From an uncultured Clostridia bacterium (lineage in GTDB: Bacteria; Bacillota; DTU014): a stretch of 64,000 nt of DNA. Under the pieces are notes generated by a model, which searched no databases, was not told the origin of the DNA, and saw only the letters and a list, made by a program, of their open reading frames with translations. The stretch covers positions 37,895 through 101,894 of the forward strand of contig FIZI01000005.1 in NCBI GenBank assembly GCA_900016865.1. Direction: 5' to 3'. The translations under genes and the position numbers were made by a program. How positions within the stretch are numbered: position 1 is the stretch's first letter; each line of letters starts with the position of its first letter. Of the stretch, positions 7,735 to 28,630 are shown in pieces.

Positions 7735-8960
7735 ACTGTCATCTCCCCGATCTTCGAATCCTGGCTTCTAATGATATCCTGTACGTCCTTGTCACCCCGT
7801 CCACTTAGGTTGACAATGACTATGCTCTCTTTTGGCATGCTTTGCGCCATCTTCACCGCATAGGACACCGCATGTGAACTCTCAAGGGCAGGTATGATAC
7901 CCTCCAACCTACTCAATGTGCGGAAGGCGGATACTGCCTCGTCATCAGTAACAGCTACATACTTCGCCCGTCCGGTGTCGTGAAGCATACAGTGCTCCGG
8001 CCCTACTCCCGGATAGTCAAGCCCTGCTGCGATCGAATGCGTTCCGGTGATCTGGCCGTCCTCGTCGCACAGGAGGTATTGAAACGACCCGTGAAGGATC
8101 CCTTTCGTTCCACCAGATATGGATGCAGCATGCTTGTTGGTCGCAAGCCCAAGGCCCCCGGCTTCTACTCCGATCAACTGCACATCCTTATCCGGAATAA
8201 AGGCGTGGAACGCCCCGATTGCATTGCTGCCTCCGCCAACGCATGCTACCACCGCATCAGGCAACCGTTTCTCCTGATCCAGGATCTGTTGCCTGGCTTC
8301 CCTTCCTATGACTGATTGAAACTCACGCACTATTAGTGGGTAGGGATGTGGCCCTGCTGCAGAGCCGACTGCGTAATGGGTGTTGCGGACATTCGTTACC
8401 CAGTCGCGAATCGCTTCGTTCATCGCATCCTTTAGTGTGCTGGTGCCAGAAGAAACGGAACGCACCTCTGCTCCGAGGAGCTTCATACGGTAGACATTTA
8501 ACGACTGCCTCTTGATGTCTTCGGCACCCATATAGATACAGCACTCAATGCCAAATAGGGCGGCAGCTGTAGCTACTGCTACGCCGTGCTGTCCCGCACC
8601 GGTCTCAGCGATTACCCGGCTTTTTCCGAGGCGCCTTGCGATGAGCATCTGCCCGATGGCATTGTTGATCTTGTGCGCCCCCGTATGGTTTAGGTCTTCT
8701 CGCTTGAGGTATATGCGTGCACCACCGCACTCGGCTGTCAGTCTTTCTGCGAAGTACAGAGGTGTAGGCCGCCCGCAATACGTTGTGAGGTAGTGATCCA
8801 ATTCTGCAACGAAACTGGGATCGTCCTTCAGGCGGCCAAACGCTTCTATGAGTTCGTGAAGAGCCGGAATGACGGTCTCTGGGACGAACATGCCCCCATA
8901 CTCGCCAAAACGGCCTGTCTCAGTTGGCTCTGAGTTGCCCCAAGCGAAGCCGGCTCCCAT
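7731..8960 (-). CDS. trpB: tryptophan synthase beta chain
   Basis: [25 protein letters not shown] and GGGSNAIG motifs. The track start 9113 would overlap trpF by 98 nt. The internal ATG 8960 ([23 protein letters not shown]) gives a typical N-terminal length. Confidence 0.9.
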
Positions 8961-9745: not shown

Positions 9746-10597
9746 TCACCGCGCAGAGCATCGTAGGGCAACTGCCGGATCAGACAAGCGGCAACGACGA
9801 ACCGCCCTTACGCTGCGCATCTCCGCAAGCAGCGACTCAGGCTGATCCGATTTCACCAATGCCTCGCCCACCAGGACTGCATCTACCCCGGCACCTGCGA
9901 GCATCTCAACCTGACTTCTACTGGAGATACCGCTCTCACTTACCACTAGGACGCCTTTTGGAATCTCGACCGCCTCAAGAACCCGCATGGTGGCAGACAG
10001 ATCTGTCTTGAAGGTCGAGAGGTCCCGGTTGTTGATCCCGATCAATTGCGCTCCAAGGTCAATGGCTCTATGAAACTCCTCGACTGTATGCACCTCAACC
10101 AAGCAATCCATATCAAGGCAGTCAGCAACATACATCAGCTTCTTTGCCTTGTCCTGGGCAATCACAGCAAGGATCAGGAGAATCGCGTCCGCTCCCATTC
10201 GCCTGCTTTCGAGGACCTGAAGTTCGTCGATTATGAAATCTTTCCGGAGCACAGGCACATTGACGCTCTTTCGCACCAACTCCAGATCCGCGCCGCTTCC
10301 TCCAAAGAACACTCGATCAGTGAGAACTGATATAGCAGAGGCTCCGCCGGAAACGTACGATTCCGCAAGCTCTCTAGGATCGAGATCTCGTCGTATGATC
10401 CCTGCAGAAGGTGAAGAGCGCTTTACCTCCGCTATCACTCCGATGCCCTCGTCTCTAATCAGGGCATCCCTGAAACGATGACGGTGTGTGGCGGGTTCGA
10501 ATTCGAGGCTCTTTGCACTGTACTCCCTGCACAGATGCCCGATCTCACTGCATTTTTGCCTAAGAATGGCTCTCAAAATCGTCTGCATTGCGAACAC
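9746..10597 (-). CDS. trpC: indole-3-glycerol phosphate synthase
   Basis: IAEVKRSSPSAG, SVLTD and VPVLRKDFIID..Q motifs. Confidence 0.92.
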   Translation of the reverse strand: MFAMQTILRAILRQKCSEIGHLCREYSAKSLEFEPATHRHRFRDALIRDEGIGVIAEVKRSSPSAGIIRRDLDPRELAESYVSGGASAISVLTDRVFFGGSGADLELVRKSVNVPVLRKDFIIDELQVLESRRMGADAILLILAVIAQDKAKKLMYVADCLDMDCLVEVHTVEEFHRAIDLGAQLIGINNRDLSTFKTDLSATMRVLEAVEIPKGVLVVSESGISSRSQVEMLAGAGVDAVLVGEALVKSDQPESLLAEMRSVRAVRRCRLSDPAVALRCSAR

Positions 10598-10614
10598 TCC
10601 ATGGCTCGTACTTG

Positions 10615-11649
10615 CTACGCAGTAGCGACGCTGCGCCCGAACTCGATCAGGTCCCTTAGCTTGGCCATAGCCGCTCCCGAGTCGATACTGTCTGCAGCTG
10701 CTTGAATCCCAGTTCTGAGATCGGGGGCCTCTCCACTGACGTAGATGGCAGCAGCAGCGTTGAGGATGACAATGTTGCGTGCGACTCCTGTACTACCTGA
10801 CAAAACATCTAGTATAAGCCTGGCGTTGTCAGCTGCGTTGCCTCCGCGTATTTCATCCAGGCTTCCACTCAGACCCATGCCGTGATCTCTCGGGTCGAGC
10901 TCAAACTCGACTACGGACCCTCGATCGATCAAGCAGGCACGAGCAGTTTCAAAGCAGGGGATCTCATCGAGCCCGCTCGCACCCGATACCACCATGCCTC
11001 GCTCAATGCCGAGCATCGCCAAAGCTTCGGCCATCTTCCGGACGATGTGCGGCGAGAAGACACCCACCACTTGGTGATTAACTCCTGCAGGATTCGCGAG
11101 AGGCCCGAGGATGTTAAAGATGCTCTTGATGCCGATCTCTCGCCGCGGAAGAGCTGCGTGTCTCATAGCCGGATGATACGTAGGCGCAAACAAGAACCCT
11201 ATACCCACCTGCTCGATAGCCATCTTGGTTTGATTGGGAGTCATGTCTACTGAGACACCCAGGGCCTCCAGCACATCTGCACTGCCGCAGCGGCTTGAGA
11301 CGGAGCGATTGCCGTGTTTTGCGACAGGTATGCCACACCCTGCGACAACAAATGCCGCAGCGGTAGAAACGTTAAAGCTGTTGGAGCGGTCTCCGCCAGT
11401 GCCGCAAGTATCAATCAGTCGATCGACTTTGGGATTGATCTTAACTGCCCTATCTCGCATTGTCTGGGCAGACCCTACTATCTCATCGACAGTCTCGCCC
11501 TTAATGCTCATGGCAGCCAGATATGCCCCAATCTGGCTATGAGTCGCTTTGCCGCTCATGATTTGATCCATGACAGCCGCTGCTTCTCCTTGAGACAGAT
11601 CTACCTTCATTACCAACTTGTGGATGGCTTGCTGTATCACTGCTCGCAC
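10615..11649 (-). CDS. trpD: anthranilate phosphoribosyltransferase
   Basis: DTCGTGGDRSNSFNVSTAAAFVVAGCGIPVAKHGNRSVSS motif. Confidence 0.92.
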   Translation of the reverse strand: MRAVIQQAIHKLVMKVDLSQGEAAAVMDQIMSGKATHSQIGAYLAAMSIKGETVDEIVGSAQTMRDRAVKINPKVDRLIDTCGTGGDRSNSFNVSTAAAFVVAGCGIPVAKHGNRSVSSRCGSADVLEALGVSVDMTPNQTKMAIEQVGIGFLFAPTYHPAMRHAALPRREIGIKSIFNILGPLANPAGVNHQVVGVFSPHIVRKMAEALAMLGIERGMVVSGASGLDEIPCFETARACLIDRGSVVEFELDPRDHGMGLSGSLDEIRGGNAADNARLILDVLSGSTGVARNIVILNAAAAIYVSGEAPDLRTGIQAAADSIDSGAAMAKLRDLIEFGRSVATA

Positions 11650-23188: not shown

Positions 23189-23779
23189 TCAATCCAACCA
23201 GATGATACGGCCTCGCTTCCGAACTGCGACCACTCTGCCTAGGATCTCAGATAGAGGTCGAGGGCCGACATCCTTGAAGCTGCTGTCAGGCCCTTCTGAC
23301 GGGTCGTTCGCAAGCAAATACACACAGCCTTCGGGCACAACACCCTCCTGGGTGACGCTGGTATGAGCCCCTAAGCTGCTGCTTCTGACTGGAATCGGAT
23401 CGCCCGCGACCGCCGCTACCTTTCGAACTACCAGGCGCCTTTCCTCGTCTGCAGACGTATCCTCGTCGTCCTCTGAGCTGTCTACTCTGTCCGAATCCGG
23501 ATCCTCAGAAGATGAGCCTTCGGCAGCTTCGGGCGCCCCAACTGATGCAACATCCCAGCTGGCGCACTTAATCGAGGCGACAACTATATCTCCCGTTTTG
23601 ACCGGGCGGTCTGTATCTCCCGTATCAGCTGCGACTATATCGCCTGCCTTGAGTTCGGGCGCCATAGCGTTGTTCGACATTTTGAAGGTTGTGATAGACA
23701 AGCCGCTCTTGAGCGCTATGCTCAGTCGCAGGCGCAGGCACAGCCAAACAAGGAACCTGTATTTCCGGCTAGTCTCCAT
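23189..23779 (-). CDS. S24/S26-clan (SipW/Sec11- or LexA-like) peptidase homolog with acidic Ser/Asp/Glu-rich insertion
   Basis: The N-terminal hydrophobic anchor is followed by NNAMAPELKAGDIV, which aligns to the SGSMEPxxxxGDIL box B/C. A 30-aa insert is AEGSSSEDPDSDRVDSSEDDEDTSADEE. Confidence 0.55.
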   Translation of the reverse strand: METSRKYRFLVWLCLRLRLSIALKSGLSITTFKMSNNAMAPELKAGDIVAADTGDTDRPVKTGDIVVASIKCASWDVASVGAPEAAEGSSSEDPDSDRVDSSEDDEDTSADEERRLVVRKVAAVAGDPIPVRSSSLGAHTSVTQEGVVPEGCVYLLANDPSEGPDSSFKDVGPRPLSEILGRVVAVRKRGRIIWLD

Positions 23780-23845
23780 TTATACTTTCGCTCCAGTGCA
23801 CAGATAGACACAGGGCCGGCAGAACCGGCCCGAAGTCAGCGGAAA

Positions 23846-25918
23846 TCAGCCTTCTCGCTCTTTCTTGGCTTCCTCAATCACTTTCTCTGCGATGTGATCC
23901 GGAACCTCTTCGTAGTCGTGGAACTCCATAGTGAAGTCTCCGCGAGCTTGGGTCATAGAGCGCAAATCAATGGCATACCGATACATCTCGGCAAGCGGAG
24001 CCATAGCCTTGATCACTTGGTATTCCCCGTCTGGTTCCATGCCGAGGATGCGACCCCTACGCTTGTTCATATCGCCCATGACATCGCCCATGTATGCTTC
24101 CGGAACCCGGATCTCGACATACATGACAGGCTCAAGAAGAACGGGCCTAGCAGTCTCCAATGCCTTCTTGATCGCTAACGAGGTGGCTATCTTAAACGCC
24201 ATTTCAGATGAGTCGACTGCGTGATAAGATCCATCCAACAATGTCACACGGACATTGACCATGGGGAATCCCGCATAGGGGCCTTCAGCAAAGGTCTCTT
24301 GAGCGCCCTTCTCGACAGCAGGGATGTAGTTTTTGGGCACTGCTCCTCCGAATATCTTGTCTACGAACTCGAACTCCTGGTCCTGGAGCGGCTCGATCTC
24401 GAGGATCACATGCCCGTACTGGCCTCTGCCTCCGGTCTGTTTCTTGTGTTTGCCCTCACCCTGCGCCTTTGCCCTTATGGTCTCTCTGTATGGGACCTTC
24501 GGCGAGCGCAACTCTATGTCTGCTCCAAACTTCTTCTTCAGGCGGGCCTTGACGATCTCGATGTGCAGTTCGCCCATACCGGAGATGAGAAGCTCTCTCG
24601 TCTCGGTGCTTCGCTCTACAGTAACAGTGGGGTCTTCCTCTGTAAGTCTGGCGAGACCGGACGCGATCTTGTCTTCGTCGCCCTTGGCGAGCGGGTAAGC
24701 AGCGAGAGTCAGTTTGGGTTTGGGGAACTCTATAGGAGGAAAGACCACCGCTGCGGATTTGTCCGCCAGTGTATCTGCTGTGGTCGTCTCATCAAGCTTG
24801 CCTACAGCAGCAATGTCGCCAGCGACCACTTCTTGGACCGGTATCTGCTCTTTGCCGAATGTCAAGAAGACCTGGCCAACTCTCTCTTCGACTCGCTTGG
24901 TCGCATTGAACACTGTGGAGTCGGACTTCAATGTCCCTGAGAACACTTTAAACAATGAAAGCTTGCCGACATAGGGGTCAGCCATGGTCTTGAAGACCAG
25001 TGCGCTAAACGGCCCTTCAGAGGATACTGGCCGCGAGATCTCGTCCTCGGTCCCTGGCTTCAGCCCAGTTGCCTCTCCCATTTGGTCCGGAGACGGACAG
25101 TATCCGGCAATGAAGTCAAGAAGCGTGGCTACTCCTACTGCTGAATGCGAAGAACCACACAGGACCGGCACCAACCTGCGCTTGAGAATCCCGTCCTTGA
25201 CTCCTGCTCGGACCTCTTCGGCAGTAAGCTCCTCGCCCTCGAGATATTTCATCAGTGCCTCATCATCATACTCTGCCGCCGCCTCAAGCAGAGGAGCCCT
25301 GTGCTCTTCGACCAGATCGGCCATATCTGCAGGGATCTCTGTCTCTTTGACGTTCTTTCCGTCAAATACATATGCTTTGAGCTCCACCAGGTCAACTACG
25401 CCCTTGAAGTCGGACTGAGACCCTATAGGCAGTTGAACTGCAGTGACTCTGTTGCCAAAGAGCTCGCGCATACGTGAGTACACCTTGTAGAAGTCCGCAT
25501 TCTCCCTGTCCATCTTGTTGACAAAGACCATCTGCGGGAGCTCCCGCTGATCAGCGAGCCTGTAGGTGCTCTCCGTCCCAACCTCTACTCCGGAGACGGC
25601 ACACACGACTGAGAGAGCACAGTCTGCAGCCCTGAGTCCGCTGACAACCTCACCTACAAAGTCCGTGTATCCTGGAGTGTCAATGATATTGACCTTTATA
25701 TCTTTCCATTCACAGGGGACGACCGAGGCGTTGATCGAAATCTGCCTCTTGACTTCCTCGGGATCGTGGTCAGACAGGGTGTTGCCTTCCTCGACCCTTC
25801 CCATCCTGGTCGTTTTGCCGCTCACATAGACCATGGCCTCAGTCAGAGTAGTCTTGCCGCACCCGCCATGACCAATCAGCCCGATGTTTCGAAGCTGTCC
25901 GGTCCCATACGTTTTCAA
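23846..25918 (-). CDS. elongation factor G paralog (EF-G2-like translational GTPase)
   Basis: Full five-domain EF-G architecture and length (690 aa). G1 is GHGGCGKTT, G3 is DTPGY and G4 is NKMD. The TTG start is preceded by GGGGAGG. Confidence 0.85.
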   Translation of the reverse strand: MKTYGTGQLRNIGLIGHGGCGKTTLTEAMVYVSGKTTRMGRVEEGNTLSDHDPEEVKRQISINASVVPCEWKDIKVNIIDTPGYTDFVGEVVSGLRAADCALSVVCAVSGVEVGTESTYRLADQRELPQMVFVNKMDRENADFYKVYSRMRELFGNRVTAVQLPIGSQSDFKGVVDLVELKAYVFDGKNVKETEIPADMADLVEEHRAPLLEAAAEYDDEALMKYLEGEELTAEEVRAGVKDGILKRRLVPVLCGSSHSAVGVATLLDFIAGYCPSPDQMGEATGLKPGTEDEISRPVSSEGPFSALVFKTMADPYVGKLSLFKVFSGTLKSDSTVFNATKRVEERVGQVFLTFGKEQIPVQEVVAGDIAAVGKLDETTTADTLADKSAAVVFPPIEFPKPKLTLAAYPLAKGDEDKIASGLARLTEEDPTVTVERSTETRELLISGMGELHIEIVKARLKKKFGADIELRSPKVPYRETIRAKAQGEGKHKKQTGGRGQYGHVILEIEPLQDQEFEFVDKIFGGAVPKNYIPAVEKGAQETFAEGPYAGFPMVNVRVTLLDGSYHAVDSSEMAFKIATSLAIKKALETARPVLLEPVMYVEIRVPEAYMGDVMGDMNKRRGRILGMEPDGEYQVIKAMAPLAEMYRYAIDLRSMTQARGDFTMEFHDYEEVPDHIAEKVIEEAKKEREG

Positions 25919-25969
25919 ACAGATCGCCTCCCCAGCACGACTCGTATCCTAGTTCAAACTCACCTTTAT

Positions 25970-25998
25970 ATTCTACACATAACTATAGCTGATTTCAA
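25970..25998 (-). promoter_or_regulatory. promoter for EF-G paralog (TTGAAA-17-TAGAAT)
   Basis: Minus strand TTGAAA (25993-25998 rc), a 17-nt spacer and TAGAAT (25970-25975 rc), ~50 nt upstream of the start. Confidence 0.45.
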
Positions 25999-26075: not shown

Positions 26076-28361
26076 TCAGCCGCACCTCGAGTACCCGCAG
26101 CAAATGCACGTAGCGCACCCGTCCTGATAGACTACATGCCCGCCGCAGTCAGGACACGCTCCAACGTGATTATCCAGATCGCTCAGGCCGTTTCCCTTCT
26201 TTACTGACGAATCGCTCGAAGCAGCAGGCTCTGCCGTGCTTGACTGCTCGTCAGACGTATTTCTAAAGCCTACTTGCTCCAGCACTCTTCCAATTGCATC
26301 AGGACACGAGTAGATGACTTGCCCGTTGTGCCAAGCCGACGAAGGACAGCGTATCCCCTTGAGATGGTGAATGATAGCCTCTGTGCTGATGCCGCTCCTT
26401 AGGGCAAGAGATATCAAACGGCTTATGGCTTCGGACTGCGCGGACGCGCACCCGCCGGACTTCCCAATCGAGGTGAAAACCTCACAGAGTCCGCACTCGT
26501 CTTGATTGACTGTGACATACACGTTTCCACAGCCGGTCTTGACCTTGACCGTCTGCCCGTAGGTCACGGCAGGCCTATCCCGCGGAATCCTGGCAACTGC
26601 GCCGGCTTCGCTGCCGGGCTGCTCAAGCTCAGCGTCCTTTGAGTCGGACTTCCTCTGAACGGACAGCACCTGGGATTCACGACTGCCGTCTCTGTATACT
26701 GTAACTCCCTTGCACCCGAGCTTGTAAGCCTCGACCAGCACTTCTTTGACGTCCTCTCTCGTTGCACTGTTCGGTAGGTTGACAGTCTTTGATACCGCGT
26801 TGTCCGTGGCCTCCTGAAACGCAGCCTGGATTCTCACGTGTTCAAGAGGTGTGATGTCATGGGCTGTGACAAAGATCCTTTGGACGTCCTCAGGTATCTC
26901 GTCGATTCCGACCACAGTCCCATGAGAAGCAACGGTCTGCATCAGCTCGGGCGTATAGAAGCCCCGCTCCCTAGCTACCTGCTCAAAGAGGGGATTGACC
27001 TCTATCAACCGGTCGTTGTCCATGACATTGCGCACAAAGCAAACAGCGAACAACGGCTCGATACCACTCGAACACCCAGCTATTATGCTGATCGTACCCG
27101 TCGGTGCGATCGTCGTAAGGGTTGCATTCCTAAGGCAAGGCACCTTGTCTGCATAGACGCTGTCTTCAAATGCAGGGAAGCTCCCGCGCTCCTCTGCGAG
27201 GGAAATCGATGCCTCCTCGGCTCGCGCTCTTATAAACTTAACGATCTGCCTGGCCGTGTCCACTGCAGCGTCAGAGTTGTACGGAATGCCAAGCCGGATC
27301 AACATATCTGCAAAGCCCATCACTCCGAGGCCGATCTTTCGCGTGAGTTTGGTCATGCGCTCAATCTCAGGCAGCGGATAGCGGTTGGCGTCAATGACAT
27401 TGTCCAAAAACCGGACTGCCGACCGCACTGTCGTGCCAAGCAAGTCCCAGTCTATCTCATAGCCGGCTTCACCGCGCTTGAGCATACGGCTAAGGTTGAT
27501 AGATCCCAGATTGCAGCTCTCGTTTGGCAGCAGGGGCTGTTCCCCGCAAGGATTTGTGCTCTCGATCTCCCCAAGCTTTGGCGTAGGGTTCGCATCATTG
27601 ATGCGGTCGATAAAGACGATGCCCGGCTCGCCGTTGCGCCATGCCGAATCGACTATGAGGTCAAACACCTCTCTCGCCCTGAGCGATCCGGTGATCTCAC
27701 CTGTCCGCGGATTTATCAGGTCGTACTCCTCGTCATCCTCAACTGCATTCATGAAATCCTCGGTCAGCGCAACCGATATGTTGAAGTTGGTCAGCTCGTC
27801 GTTGTCCTCCTTTGCCCGGATGAACTCCAGGATGTCCGGGTGGTCGACGCGAAGTATACCCATATTGGCTCCGCGTCTTGTACCTCCCTGCTTGACAGCG
27901 CTGGTGGCAGCGTTGAAGACTTTCATGAAGGAGACCGGGCCGCTTGCTACCCCACCAGTAGAAAGGACCTGGTCGTTCTTTGGCCTGAGTCTGGAAAAAG
28001 AAAACCCTGTACCCCCACCACTCTTGTGAATCAGGGCCGCGTTCTTGATCGCATCGAATATTGCCTCCATCGAGTCCTCGACGGGCAGTACGAAGCAAGC
28101 ACTGAGCTGCTGCAGGTCGCGTCCGGCGTTCATGAGAGTGGGCGAATTCGGCAAAAACTGCAAATTCACCATCATCTCATACCATGTTTGTTCCCAAGCA
28201 GCCGCTGTCTCCTTACTCGCTCCGTAGATCTCGGTCTCAACCTCTGCGATGTTGCGAGCGACTCTGCGAAACATGTCCTCAGGCGTCTCTACCACCCTAC
28301 CATTCTCTTTGCGAAGATAGCGTCTCTCAAGGACAATCCGAGCGTTCGCTGTCAACTCCAT
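26076..28361 (-). CDS. nrdJ: adenosylcobalamin-dependent (class II) ribonucleotide reductase with C-terminal Zn finger
   Basis: RNR class II core and a C-terminal CPDCGGHVVYQDGCATCICCGY motif. The ATG at 28361 (MELTANARIVLERRYL) has a GGGAGG SD; the track start 28586 adds 75 non-homologous residues. Confidence 0.9.
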   Translation of the reverse strand: MELTANARIVLERRYLRKENGRVVETPEDMFRRVARNIAEVETEIYGASKETAAAWEQTWYEMMVNLQFLPNSPTLMNAGRDLQQLSACFVLPVEDSMEAIFDAIKNAALIHKSGGGTGFSFSRLRPKNDQVLSTGGVASGPVSFMKVFNAATSAVKQGGTRRGANMGILRVDHPDILEFIRAKEDNDELTNFNISVALTEDFMNAVEDDEEYDLINPRTGEITGSLRAREVFDLIVDSAWRNGEPGIVFIDRINDANPTPKLGEIESTNPCGEQPLLPNESCNLGSINLSRMLKRGEAGYEIDWDLLGTTVRSAVRFLDNVIDANRYPLPEIERMTKLTRKIGLGVMGFADMLIRLGIPYNSDAAVDTARQIVKFIRARAEEASISLAEERGSFPAFEDSVYADKVPCLRNATLTTIAPTGTISIIAGCSSGIEPLFAVCFVRNVMDNDRLIEVNPLFEQVARERGFYTPELMQTVASHGTVVGIDEIPEDVQRIFVTAHDITPLEHVRIQAAFQEATDNAVSKTVNLPNSATREDVKEVLVEAYKLGCKGVTVYRDGSRESQVLSVQRKSDSKDAELEQPGSEAGAVARIPRDRPAVTYGQTVKVKTGCGNVYVTVNQDECGLCEVFTSIGKSGGCASAQSEAISRLISLALRSGISTEAIIHHLKGIRCPSSAWHNGQVIYSCPDAIGRVLEQVGFRNTSDEQSSTAEPAASSDSSVKKGNGLSDLDNHVGACPDCGGHVVYQDGCATCICCGYSRCG

Positions 28362-28454
28362 AAAGCCAGCCTCCCAATAAGAACAATAAGATACCAAATC
28401 TCCTTCAAGCGGGCAAACTAACACAGAAACAGTCAGATAAAGAAAGATGAAAAG

Positions 28455-28502
28455 CGGTGTCAAATCACAATATGTAGTGTCTCGGTTTAGTGTATCATAC
28501 AA
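28455..28502. promoter_or_regulatory. tandem NrdR boxes in nrdJ promoter
   Basis: tcacaatatgtagtgt (28455-28470, 14/16 match to acaCwAtATaTwGtgt) and the perfect palindrome atacaacatgttgtat (28487-28502). Centres are 32 bp apart. Confidence 0.55.
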
Positions 28503-28630
28503 CATGTTGTATATAAAGAAACCCAAAGGGCGATGATTGGGGGTTTGAGCCCGGTGATCCGATTTACTGTCGCTTTTCCGCCTCAAGGTGTACAGCAGAT
28601 GGACGACTGCTGCTTGACAACTGTCTCAAC

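Follow-up and report, generated by a model that had tools for sequence, protein, structure and literature searches.

EFG II (EF-G2) is a widespread, rapidly evolving paralog of elongation factor G, found as a second copy beside the canonical EF-G (EFG I) that fusA encodes in the str operon. Genomes with a single copy always carry EFG I, and the motifs of EFG II differ in a defined way (Margus 2011, PMC3150367). The G2 consensus RGITI is lost and becomes xxxSx (RxxSI in Clostridia); G1 GhxxxGKT, G3 DxPG and G4 NKxD are kept. Replacement of the P-loop Asp by Gly in EFGII has also been noted (Atkinson 2015, PMC4342817). These proteins are relevant to the question of whether GTP hydrolysis is required for translocation, and to how bacteria translate during starvation. 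This interest has already been developed at the family level in Bacteroides, Mycobacterium and Thermus, and the protein described here is one further member.

The activities of the three characterized EFG II proteins disagree. T. thermophilus EF-G-2 (PDB 1WDT, 2DY1; Connell 2007) is reported to hydrolyze GTP in a ribosome-dependent manner, to translocate and to support poly(Phe) synthesis; its intrinsic GTPase activity is higher and its poly(U) activity is low. B. thetaiotaomicron EF-G2 (PDB 7UVP, 8DMF) is reported to translocate without ribosome-dependent GTPase activity (Han 2023, as cited by later papers), and carbon starvation induces it (Han 2023, as cited by later papers; Townsend 2020). 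Its deposited molecule name in 7UVP is ‘TetQ’. M. smegmatis EF-G2 (PDB 9K0Z, 9K10) is a second, non-essential EF-G copy. It lacks ribosome-dependent GTPase and ribosome recycling activities, binds the non-rotated (non-ratcheted) 70S ribosome and has been termed a stress-specific factor. Displacement of its domain IV loops from tRNA has been reported. Substitutions of the catalytic His have been studied in canonical factors. H88Y nearly abolishes the GTPase activity of M. smegmatis EF-G1, and multi-turnover translocation persists in E. coli EF-G H92A, with slow release. Mitochondrial EF-G2 is reported to retain the catalytic His.

Here we describe an EFG II-type protein (the query) encoded in the window, the whole 64,000-nucleotide stretch of DNA that was analyzed. 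Positions of the gene, its motifs and flanking signals are listed in Table 1.

Table 1. Features of the EFG II-type gene and its flanks, in window coordinates.
Feature	Position	Strand	Remarks
EFG II-type (EF-G2-like) elongation factor G paralog	23846..25918	minus	690 aa ORF, TTG start
Sigma-70-like promoter candidate TTGAAA-17-TAGAAT	25970..25998	minus	consensus scan, 10/12 matches; ~51 nt upstream of start codon
Shine-Dalgarno GGGGAGG	25927..25933	minus	8 nt before TTG start; identical in nearest ortholog (L001)
G1 / P-loop GHGGCGKTT, residues 16-24	25847..25873	minus	read from sequence and alignments
G2 / switch I RQISI, residues 58-62	25733..25747	minus	replaces RGITI; fits Clostridia EFG II pattern RxxSI (Margus 2011)
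G3 / switch II DTPGY, residues 80-84	25667..25681	minus	Tyr84 codon 25667..25669, opposite catalytic His87 of Thermus EF-G
G4 NKMD, residues 134-137	25508..25519	minus	canonical guanine-specificity motif kept
Domain IV loop 1 KKQTGGRGQYGH, residues 492-503	24410..24445	minus	nearly invariant; includes EFG II-specific Lys-Lys
Domain IV loop 2 GSYHAVDSS, residues 563-571	24206..24232	minus	translocation-tip histidine kept
GC-rich 8-bp hairpin, possible weak terminator	23813..23831	minus	15 nt past stop codon, then moderately U-rich tract

Membership in the EFG II family

As the initial annotation proposed, the query is a paralog-type EF-G homolog of full length, and all five EF-G domains are matched by Pfam. 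Its AlphaFold (AF2) model is confident, with a pLDDT of 92.3. TM scores of 0.87-0.95 were obtained when the model was superimposed on EF-G bound to the ribosome and on the EF-G2 proteins of M. smegmatis and B. thetaiotaomicron. Compared to the nearest ortholog, in L001 (82% identical), the gene has a dN/dS of 0.044 and is therefore functional. The TTG start is common to both.

The query almost certainly belongs to the Clostridia subgroup of EFG II. All 13 EFG II-specific positions are present (Margus 2011, PMC3150367). In 1WDT numbering, the Type I positions Gly16, Leu25, Ser61, Thr291, Gly333 and Lys/Arg352 correspond to G16, L25, S61, T311, G355 and K374 in the query. The Type II positions D216, V250, L264, K471, K472, E513 and G603 correspond to D218, V252, L266, K492, K493, E536 and G626. 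In domain II, the canonical signature Ile, Ala, Gly is replaced by Thr, Gly, Lys, which is found in 118/118 close homologs. The motifs RQISI, GHGGCGKT, DTPG and NKMD together fit the EFG II pattern, and the canonical machinery AHxDxGKT, RGITI and DTPGH with its str-operon context is absent. Phylogenetic placement agrees with this assignment. Neighbor joining, a distance method only, separated six EFG I-type from 150 EFG II-type sequences with a bootstrap of 100/100, and the query is among the latter. Sources of the five EFG I-type cluster representatives include Dictyoglomus and Gluconobacter. Anaerobic digesters and syntrophic lineages, for example Syntrophothermus and Tepidanaerobacter, are the source of many relatives of the query.

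The Clostridia sub-subgroup (Margus 2011, PMC3150367; EFGII in Atkinson 2015, PMC4342817) is the least diverged in EFG II. It lies near the root, has no indels relative to EFG I and its genes are found outside the str operon. The query likewise has no indels and lies outside the str operon, and shares with the subgroup the 13 positions, RxxSI and the P-loop Gly. Most members have Ala/Ser in the P-loop and Phe after the Tyr, whereas the query lineage has Cys (GHGGCGKT) and Thr. Otherwise there is no substantive difference.

NCBIfam NF009381, a subfamily separate from canonical EF-G, is the better-scoring model (973 bits). The EF-G2 equivalog NF009377 (657 bits, cutoff 890) and the Bacteroides EF-G2 model NF058620 (634 bits, cutoff 1000) fall below their cutoffs; these two cover other EFG II sub-subgroups. 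The canonical EF-G model TIGR00484 scores 767 bits, above its cutoff of 659.4. Proteins like the query thus pass the canonical model and are labeled ‘elongation factor G’ despite belonging to the His-less EFG II. EFG II proteins should not be counted as the main translocase of the cell.

GTPase motifs and domain IV

The alignments of the query to T. thermophilus EF-G (4w29, 1dar) found by phmmer are ungapped across the G domain. Tyr84 faces His87 of DTPGH, and GHGGCGKT faces AHIDAGKT; the motif does not shift to restore a His. The G3 region reads DTPGYTDF in full, from D80 onward. In the P-loop, canonical Ala19, Ile21 and Asp22 (Thermus numbering) are each replaced by Gly, and Leu25 follows. 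[quoted passage not shown] The motifs for nucleotide binding, GKT, DxPG and NKMD, are intact. Both the His-to-Tyr change and the altered G1 loop pointed out in the initial annotation are thus borne out. The implied novelty is not, as EFG II proteins routinely have Tyr in place of the catalytic His.

Loss of the three residues is family-wide. Of 118 full-length homologs, 112 have Tyr and 6 have Phe in the switch-II His column. At the 80 genome loci it is Tyr in 76, Phe in 4 and His in none. The P-loop Asp is Gly in 117/118 close homologs, and the P-loop follows the pattern [SGA]H[GS]G[ASC]GKT. The chance that Tyr84 results from a sequencing error, misalignment or a decaying pseudogene is negligible. 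The alignment is ungapped, every homolog and locus examined has Tyr or Phe, the reading frame is intact, dN/dS is 0.044, and an identical protein is encoded on another contig (P0001).

Across the wider family, the same column is variable. In 145 EFG II-type cluster representatives Tyr and Phe dominate, followed by Asp, Leu, Ala, Asn and Ser, and His is kept in only 4. Over 155 aligned sequences there are 75 Tyr and 32 Phe. No single residue at this position can be catalytic, because all of these are tolerated. The Tyr hydroxyl was considered as a catalytic group and rejected, since Phe, Leu and Ala occupy the same column.

Domain IV is highly conserved. The segments KKQ[ST]GGRGQYG and GSYHxVDSSEMAFKIA are near-invariant across homologs, and H566, V568, D569 and S570 of loop 2 are invariant. 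The acidic G’ helix, which contacts L7/L12, is also conserved. The present work makes one small addition, namely the contrast between a ‘catalytic’ column that varies over 145 EFG II-type clusters and domain IV loops that remain constant.

The query shares features with each of the characterized proteins. Like T. thermophilus EF-G-2, it has GHxGxGKTTL, a Tyr after DxPG and the five-domain fold. This Tyr precedes DFVGE, the G3 region of 1WDT being DAPGYGDFVGE. The two are only ~38% identical, and unlike the query T. thermophilus EF-G-2 has HRTTV for RxxSI, TKLD for NKMD and deletions (665 aa). The query lies nearer to canonical EF-G (667 bits) than to 1WDT (497 bits). M. smegmatis EF-G2 also has Tyr for the catalytic His (Tyr98) and a remodeled P-loop. 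Unlike the query, it has many indels and has lost Arg and Ile in switch I as well as Asn and Met in G4. B. thetaiotaomicron EF-G2 is EFG II-type, lacks the catalytic His, has DFVG after G3 and adopts the ribosome-bound EF-G fold. However, it has Ser instead of Tyr (DCPGSDDFVGS), YGYSV at G2 and NQLD at G4. Canonical EF-G resembles the query in domain order and domain IV loops, and Thermus EF-G is 47% identical to it.

Gene neighborhood and proposed function

The query gene adjoins a class II RNR gene and an S26-like gene; rpsL, rpsG and tuf are not adjacent. It is the only EF-G-like gene in the window, which contains no EF-Tu and no str operon, and it follows tig-clpP-clpX-lonB-lon. No canonical EF-G was found close to the paralog in 80 loci. 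Clustering of flanking ORFs placed the ctsR-mcsA-mcsB heat-shock operon directly downstream of the ortholog in 22/80 loci, and IMPDH and family-4 UDG each flank it in ~14/80. Synteny of the window neighbors (RNR, S26-like, aminotransferase, SerA, DUF1015 and Lon) is seen only in L001, the closest relative. A conserved operon partner or functional module was rejected, as the flanking associations are only partial. Across the 80 loci the substitution is kept, as Tyr or Phe, and the neighborhood is not. The initial annotation linked the gene to an adjacent, apparently altered protein, which is a degenerate S26-like gene. Because this adjacency is shared only with the closest relative, it does not point to a functional link. 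The S26-like neighbor had no match in a sequence search of the PDB.

The most likely role of the query, to which we assign a probability of roughly one half, is that of a slow accessory translocase on which the cell draws under stress or when energy is short, and whose GTP hydrolysis is weak or non-canonical. This reading draws on residue conservation and on analogy with characterized EFG II proteins. The query would bind GTP and, like EF-G, enter the factor site of the ribosome. Its domain IV would drive tRNA-mRNA translocation, more slowly. GTP hydrolysis would be weak, absent or uncoupled from the mechanism involving the sarcin-ricin loop and the His. The protein may step in when either energy or the canonical factor runs short, for instance during starvation, in stationary phase or under stress.

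Impaired hydrolysis, as first proposed, is a reasonable inference. The triad is lost, H88Y nearly abolishes GTPase activity in a canonical factor, and M. smegmatis EF-G2 and B. thetaiotaomicron EF-G2 are reported to lack ribosome-dependent GTPase activity. However, the Tyr alone is no proof of impairment, because T. thermophilus EF-G-2 carries the same Tyr yet is reported to hydrolyze GTP and to translocate. The query might thus be a GTPase-competent alternative EF-G of this kind, hydrolyzing GTP on the ribosome or intrinsically without the switch-II His, and acting as a largely redundant or condition-specific translocase. We consider this rather unlikely, although several observations are consistent with it. 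The T. thermophilus protein also shares the P-loop Gly, and the mechanism would have its analogy in GTPases whose catalytic position is hydrophobic. In the query, NKMD, the switch I Arg, Ile and Ser and the acidic G’ helix are retained, and the nucleotide-contact motifs are strongly conserved. Compared to the three characterized EFG II proteins, it is less diverged from canonical EF-G, with 47% identity to Thermus EF-G, no indels, and NKMD and the switch I Arg and Ile retained; it might for this reason behave more like the canonical factor. The H88Y result argues against a competent GTPase, as do the seven residues tolerated at the His column, and no alternative catalytic residue was found here.

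A role as regulator, hibernation or protection factor ‘rather than a translocase’ had also been suggested, and this part of the proposal does not hold up well. The domain IV tip loops are near-invariant, and two characterized EFG II proteins are reported to translocate. A non-translocating stress regulator like M. smegmatis EF-G2, which would bind GTP, occupy the 70S/50S factor site and modulate or pause translation, is an unlikely description of the query. That protein has the same His-to-Tyr change, shows no GTPase or recycling activity and sits on the non-ratcheted 70S. The position of orthologs directly upstream of ctsR-mcsA-mcsB, and of the window gene after tig-clpP-clpX-lonB-lon, would also suit a stress function. 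Yet this association is weak and may reflect chromosome position only. Conservation of the loops that contact A-site tRNA and the decoding center would be needless for a simple site blocker, and those of M. smegmatis EF-G2 reportedly lie away from tRNA. M. smegmatis EF-G2 is also far more remote from canonical EF-G than the query is (508 vs 667 bits). Very improbable is a Tet(M)/Tet(O)-type protection factor or a recycling-only EF-G of the spdEFG2 or mitochondrial EF-G2 kind. Both groups have an EF-G-like fold, and the 7UVP entry bears a Tet name. However, the NCBIfam Tet(M)/Tet(O) ribosomal-protection model NF012153 scores the query at 325 bits, far below its cutoff of 775. The catalytic His is retained in Tet proteins and in EF-G2 of the recycling type, and the query has EF-G domain IV loops and the EFG II rather than the spd-type signature.

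The auxiliary-translocase reading can be taken further, although the extended form is doubtful. Clostridia-type EFG II might be a hydrolysis-independent translocase of low GTP cost for energy-starved anaerobic Bacillota, working within a protein-quality-control or heat-shock response. The aromatic residue would exclude the hydrolytic water, and placement near ctsR-mcsA-mcsB or clpP-clpX-lon would reflect co-regulation.

Expression signals

Scanning the entire window against Rfam gave no match to an RNA family, and so no known leader or riboswitch. The hairpin downstream of the stop codon has an MFE of -21 kcal/mol (z = -1.9) and was not called by the terminator scan. The initial annotation described a strong promoter belonging to the gene itself. 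The TTGAAA-17-TAGAAT element is present, and the consensus scan gave 4 sites in the region compared to 1.6 expected. In L001 its -10 region is preserved, as is the 5’ UTR, and sequence farther upstream is not. We regard it as a plausible promoter of the gene.

Assignment of the protein to EFG II

The EF-G paralog is a full-length EF-G-like protein as initially annotated, containing all five EF-G modules in Pfam (GTP_EFTU, EF-G_D2, EFG_III, EFG_IV and EFG_C). Both quoted motifs are present. G1 reads GHGGCGKTT (residues 16-24) and G3 reads IIDTPGYTDF, with Tyr84 after the glycine; G2 is RQISI and G4 is NKMD. The phmmer alignment with T. thermophilus EF-G has zero gaps across the G domain, aligning Tyr84 with His87 of DTPGH and GHGGCGKT with AHIDAGKT. 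No realignment places a histidine at the catalytic position, which confirms the proposed His-to-Tyr change. The AlphaFold2 model (86 homologs as input) has a pLDDT of 92.3 and a pTM of 0.86. It superimposes on ribosome-bound EF-G structures with TM scores up to 0.95, on ribosome-bound M. smegmatis EF-G2 (9K0Z) with 0.91 and on B. thetaiotaomicron EF-G2 (8DMF) with 0.87.

Among the NCBIfam models, subfamily NF009381 ("elongation factor G") scores best (973 bits, cutoff 583). The protein also passes the canonical EF-G equivalog TIGR00484 (767 versus 659 bits), and misses the cutoffs of the EF-G2 model NF009377 (657 versus 890), the Bacteroides EF-G2 model NF058620 (634 versus 1000) and the Tet-protection model (325 versus 775). 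Decisive for the family is the comparison with the published definition of EFG II, in which six positions are conserved differently in EFG I, the canonical str-operon EF-G, and EFG II, and seven more are conserved in EFG II only (Margus, Remm and Tenson, 2011; PMC3150367). Carried over by alignment with Thermus EF-G, all six (G16, L25, S61, T311, G355 and K374) and all seven (D218, V252, L266, K492, K493, E536 and G626) are found, 13/13 in total. EFG II proteins have also lost RGITI from G2, and those of Clostridia read RxxSI instead (PMC3150367), the pattern seen here.

Database comparisons gave the same placement. HMMER was run exhaustively against 1.84 billion cluster representatives, and 145 of the best 150 clusters (40-53% identity) carry the EFG II signature, usually with Thr-Gly-Lys in domain II together with Lys-Lys-Glu in domain IV. 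The other five carry the canonical signature (AID P-loop, RGITI, HV after DxPG and [IV]AG in domain II). A neighbor-joining tree separates the canonical set and Thermus EF-G from all EFG II-type sequences, including ours, in 100/100 bootstrap replicates. Identity to canonical Thermus EF-G is 47%, and the match to that protein (667 bits) is stronger than the one to T. thermophilus EF-G-2 (497 bits). This is because Clostridia sequences branch close to the root of the EFG II tree and are less diverged, with few indels (PMC3150367).

The protein is thus an ordinary Clostridia-type member of EFG II/EF-G2, a paralog family that is already known, occurs widely and has been characterised structurally, and the flagged feature is the trait that defines it. 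Automated annotation does not separate this paralog from the main translocase, since it passes TIGR00484 and its relatives are called 'elongation factor G' in every public source. The remaining value lies in this plain naming of EFG II proteins, and in the Clostridia type being their least diverged subgroup.

Conservation of the altered motifs

Both deviations are described family traits, found in characterised proteins and in the literature. T. thermophilus EF-G-2 (1WDT) has GHAGSGKTTL and DAPGYGDFVGE, with the same tyrosine; B. thetaiotaomicron EF-G2 (7UVP, deposited as "TetQ") has GSSGSGKTTL, YGYSV, DCPGSDDFVGS and NQLD. EFGII proteins have a divergent G domain, with glycine replacing the P-loop aspartate that binds a monovalent cation, and are capable of slow translocation (Atkinson, 2015; PMC4342817). 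In M. smegmatis EF-G2 the catalytic His is likewise replaced by Tyr, and an H88Y change in EF-G1 of this species is reported to leave almost no GTPase activity. The suspicion of altered GTPase chemistry was reasonable, and the trait itself was already known.

Sequencing error and a decaying gene are ruled out. An identical protein is found on another public contig (P0001). Of 118 full-length close homologs (55-88% identity), 112 have Tyr and 6 have Phe as the switch-II residue; GTDB species genomes supplied 80 loci, of which 76 encode Tyr, 4 Phe and none His. The nearest genome is the uncultured Bacillota MAG AS02xzSISU_7 (locus L001; 82% identity), and other relatives are labelled Tepidanaerobacter, Syntrophothermus, Symbiobacterium, Limnochordia, Thermoanaerobacterales and similar. 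Comparison with the L001 ortholog, which shares the TTG start, gave a dN of 0.117, a saturated dS of about 2.6 and a dN/dS of 0.044, indicating strong purifying selection.

The "catalytic" column varies among the 145 EFG II-type clusters. Tyr and Phe predominate (75 and 32 of 155 aligned sequences, Thermus reference excluded), with Asp, Leu, Ala, Asn, Ser and a few others more rarely. Since Phe, Leu and Ala occur there, the Tyr hydroxyl cannot be what generally replaces the histidine as catalyst. Close homologs almost without exception have Gly or Ser in place of the hydrophobic-gate Ile21 (Thermus numbering) and Gly in place of Asp22, which binds the cation and the SRL. GKT, DxPG, NKxD and the acidic G' helix contacting L7/L12 are highly conserved, and above all the domain IV tip loops KKQ[ST]GGRGQYG and GSYHxVDSSEMAFKIA. 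Judged from these alignments, constraint acts on the nucleotide pocket and the translocation tip, and not on the canonical GTPase-activation residues.

Only four EFG II-type representatives (P0155, P0214, P0228 and P0238) keep the histidine. They otherwise have the full signature (Thr-Gly-Lys, Lys-Lys-Glu/Asp and a non-RGITI G2). Their histidine may be a retention or a reversion, and they would provide natural controls for the role of the switch-II residue. Cys20 of the P-loop is shared by a close clade (14 of the 118 homologs) and is Ala or Ser in other members of the subgroup; a redox-sensitive P-loop is speculative.

Possible function

The fold is intact, the nucleotide-binding and domain IV elements of this EFG II protein are kept, and the canonical Ile, Asp and His are lost. 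We propose, with a probability of about one half, that it is a slow translocase whose GTP hydrolysis is impaired or uncoupled. It would bind GTP, dock in the ribosomal factor site and promote translocation slowly via domain IV, hydrolysing GTP weakly, not at all or by a non-canonical route. Such a factor would help the cell when energy or canonical EF-G runs short. E. coli EF-G carrying H92A remains capable of multi-turnover translocation, its release being slowed to about 20 s, and the poly(U) activity of T. thermophilus EF-G-2 is low. B. thetaiotaomicron EF-G2 is reported to translocate in the absence of GTPase activity, and carbon starvation induces it while fusA falls.

The probability is divided among three readings because characterised EFG II homologs disagree on GTP hydrolysis in the literature. 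A parallel is the group of GTPases whose catalytic position holds a hydrophobic residue and which hydrolyse GTP in another way, so losing the canonical residue need not abolish hydrolysis. T. thermophilus EF-G-2, with the same tyrosine, was reported to have ribosome-dependent and higher intrinsic GTPase activity; that our protein is likewise a GTPase-competent alternative EF-G is a minority reading. M. smegmatis EF-G2 has essentially no GTPase activity and is described as a stress factor binding non-rotated ribosomes. A non-translocating regulator of this kind is slightly less probable again, and we give very little weight to ribosomal protection, a recycling-only function or an artefact.

Gene neighbourhood and expression signals

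Coordinates of the gene and its surroundings in the window
Feature	Position	Strand	Remarks
EFG II ORF	23846..25918	-	690 aa, TTG start
Cys20 codon	25859..25861	-	P-loop
Shine-Dalgarno GGGGAGG		-	8 nt 5' of TTG start; sequence reading
5' UTR	25919..25969	-	about 50 nt; L001 about 7950..8000
Promoter-like TTGAAA-17-TAGAAT	25998..25970	-	10/12 consensus matches
S26-like protein	23189..23779	-	196 aa; directly downstream of EFG II gene; L001 ortholog 10125..10649
Class II-type ribonucleotide reductase (RNR)	26076..28586	-	C-terminal TSCPD domain

The gene lies outside the str-operon context, and no other EF-G or EF-Tu gene is found within the window. Its neighbours are the RNR upstream and a degenerate S26-like gene downstream, in the order lonB-lon-RNR-EFG II-S26-like-aminotransferase-serA-DUF1015; the whole preceding run is tig-clpP-clpX-lonB-lon-RNR. 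Among the genome loci compared, this order recurs in L001 only. Elsewhere the commonest downstream neighbours are ctsR-mcsA-mcsB, a class III heat-shock regulator operon, with the ortholog directly upstream on the same strand (22/80 loci, e.g. L054, L012 and L022). Upstream, IMPDH or a family-4 uracil-DNA glycosylase is commonest (about 14 loci each); neighbours were assigned by eye from cluster representatives. These arrangements hint at a link to stress genes, and the adjacency may be mere chromosomal position. We do not regard them as a functional module.

The S26-like protein is probably the second catalytically altered protein of the initial annotation. It matches Peptidase_S26/signal peptidase I weakly (Pfam 28.7 bits; TIGR02227 29.3 versus a cutoff of 47) and has no match among PDB sequences. 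Its nucleophile box is SNNAMAPEL (SNDAMAPEL in L001), with Ala, by eye, at the catalytic Ser position, and it has a long acidic and Ser-rich insert. Its adjacency, reproduced only in L001, has no demonstrated meaning. The RNR ORF as listed begins at an upstream TTG, which puts about 75 extra residues in front of the Ribonuc_red_lgN domain; translation probably begins farther downstream, near MELTANARIV.

The gene had been credited with its own strong promoter. The site is present, and by itself the match is weak evidence, since 4 such sites were found versus 1.6 expected in the 3.4-kb region. L001 retains the -35 element (TTGATA), the block GTGTAGAATATA and almost all of the 5' UTR, which supports a putative independent transcription unit; farther upstream the sequence is not conserved. 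An 8-bp GC hairpin lies 3' of the stop codon. The 5' UTR has no match in Rfam. It is almost identical in L001, in contrast to the coding region with its 82% protein identity and saturated synonymous sites, and could be a small regulatory leader.
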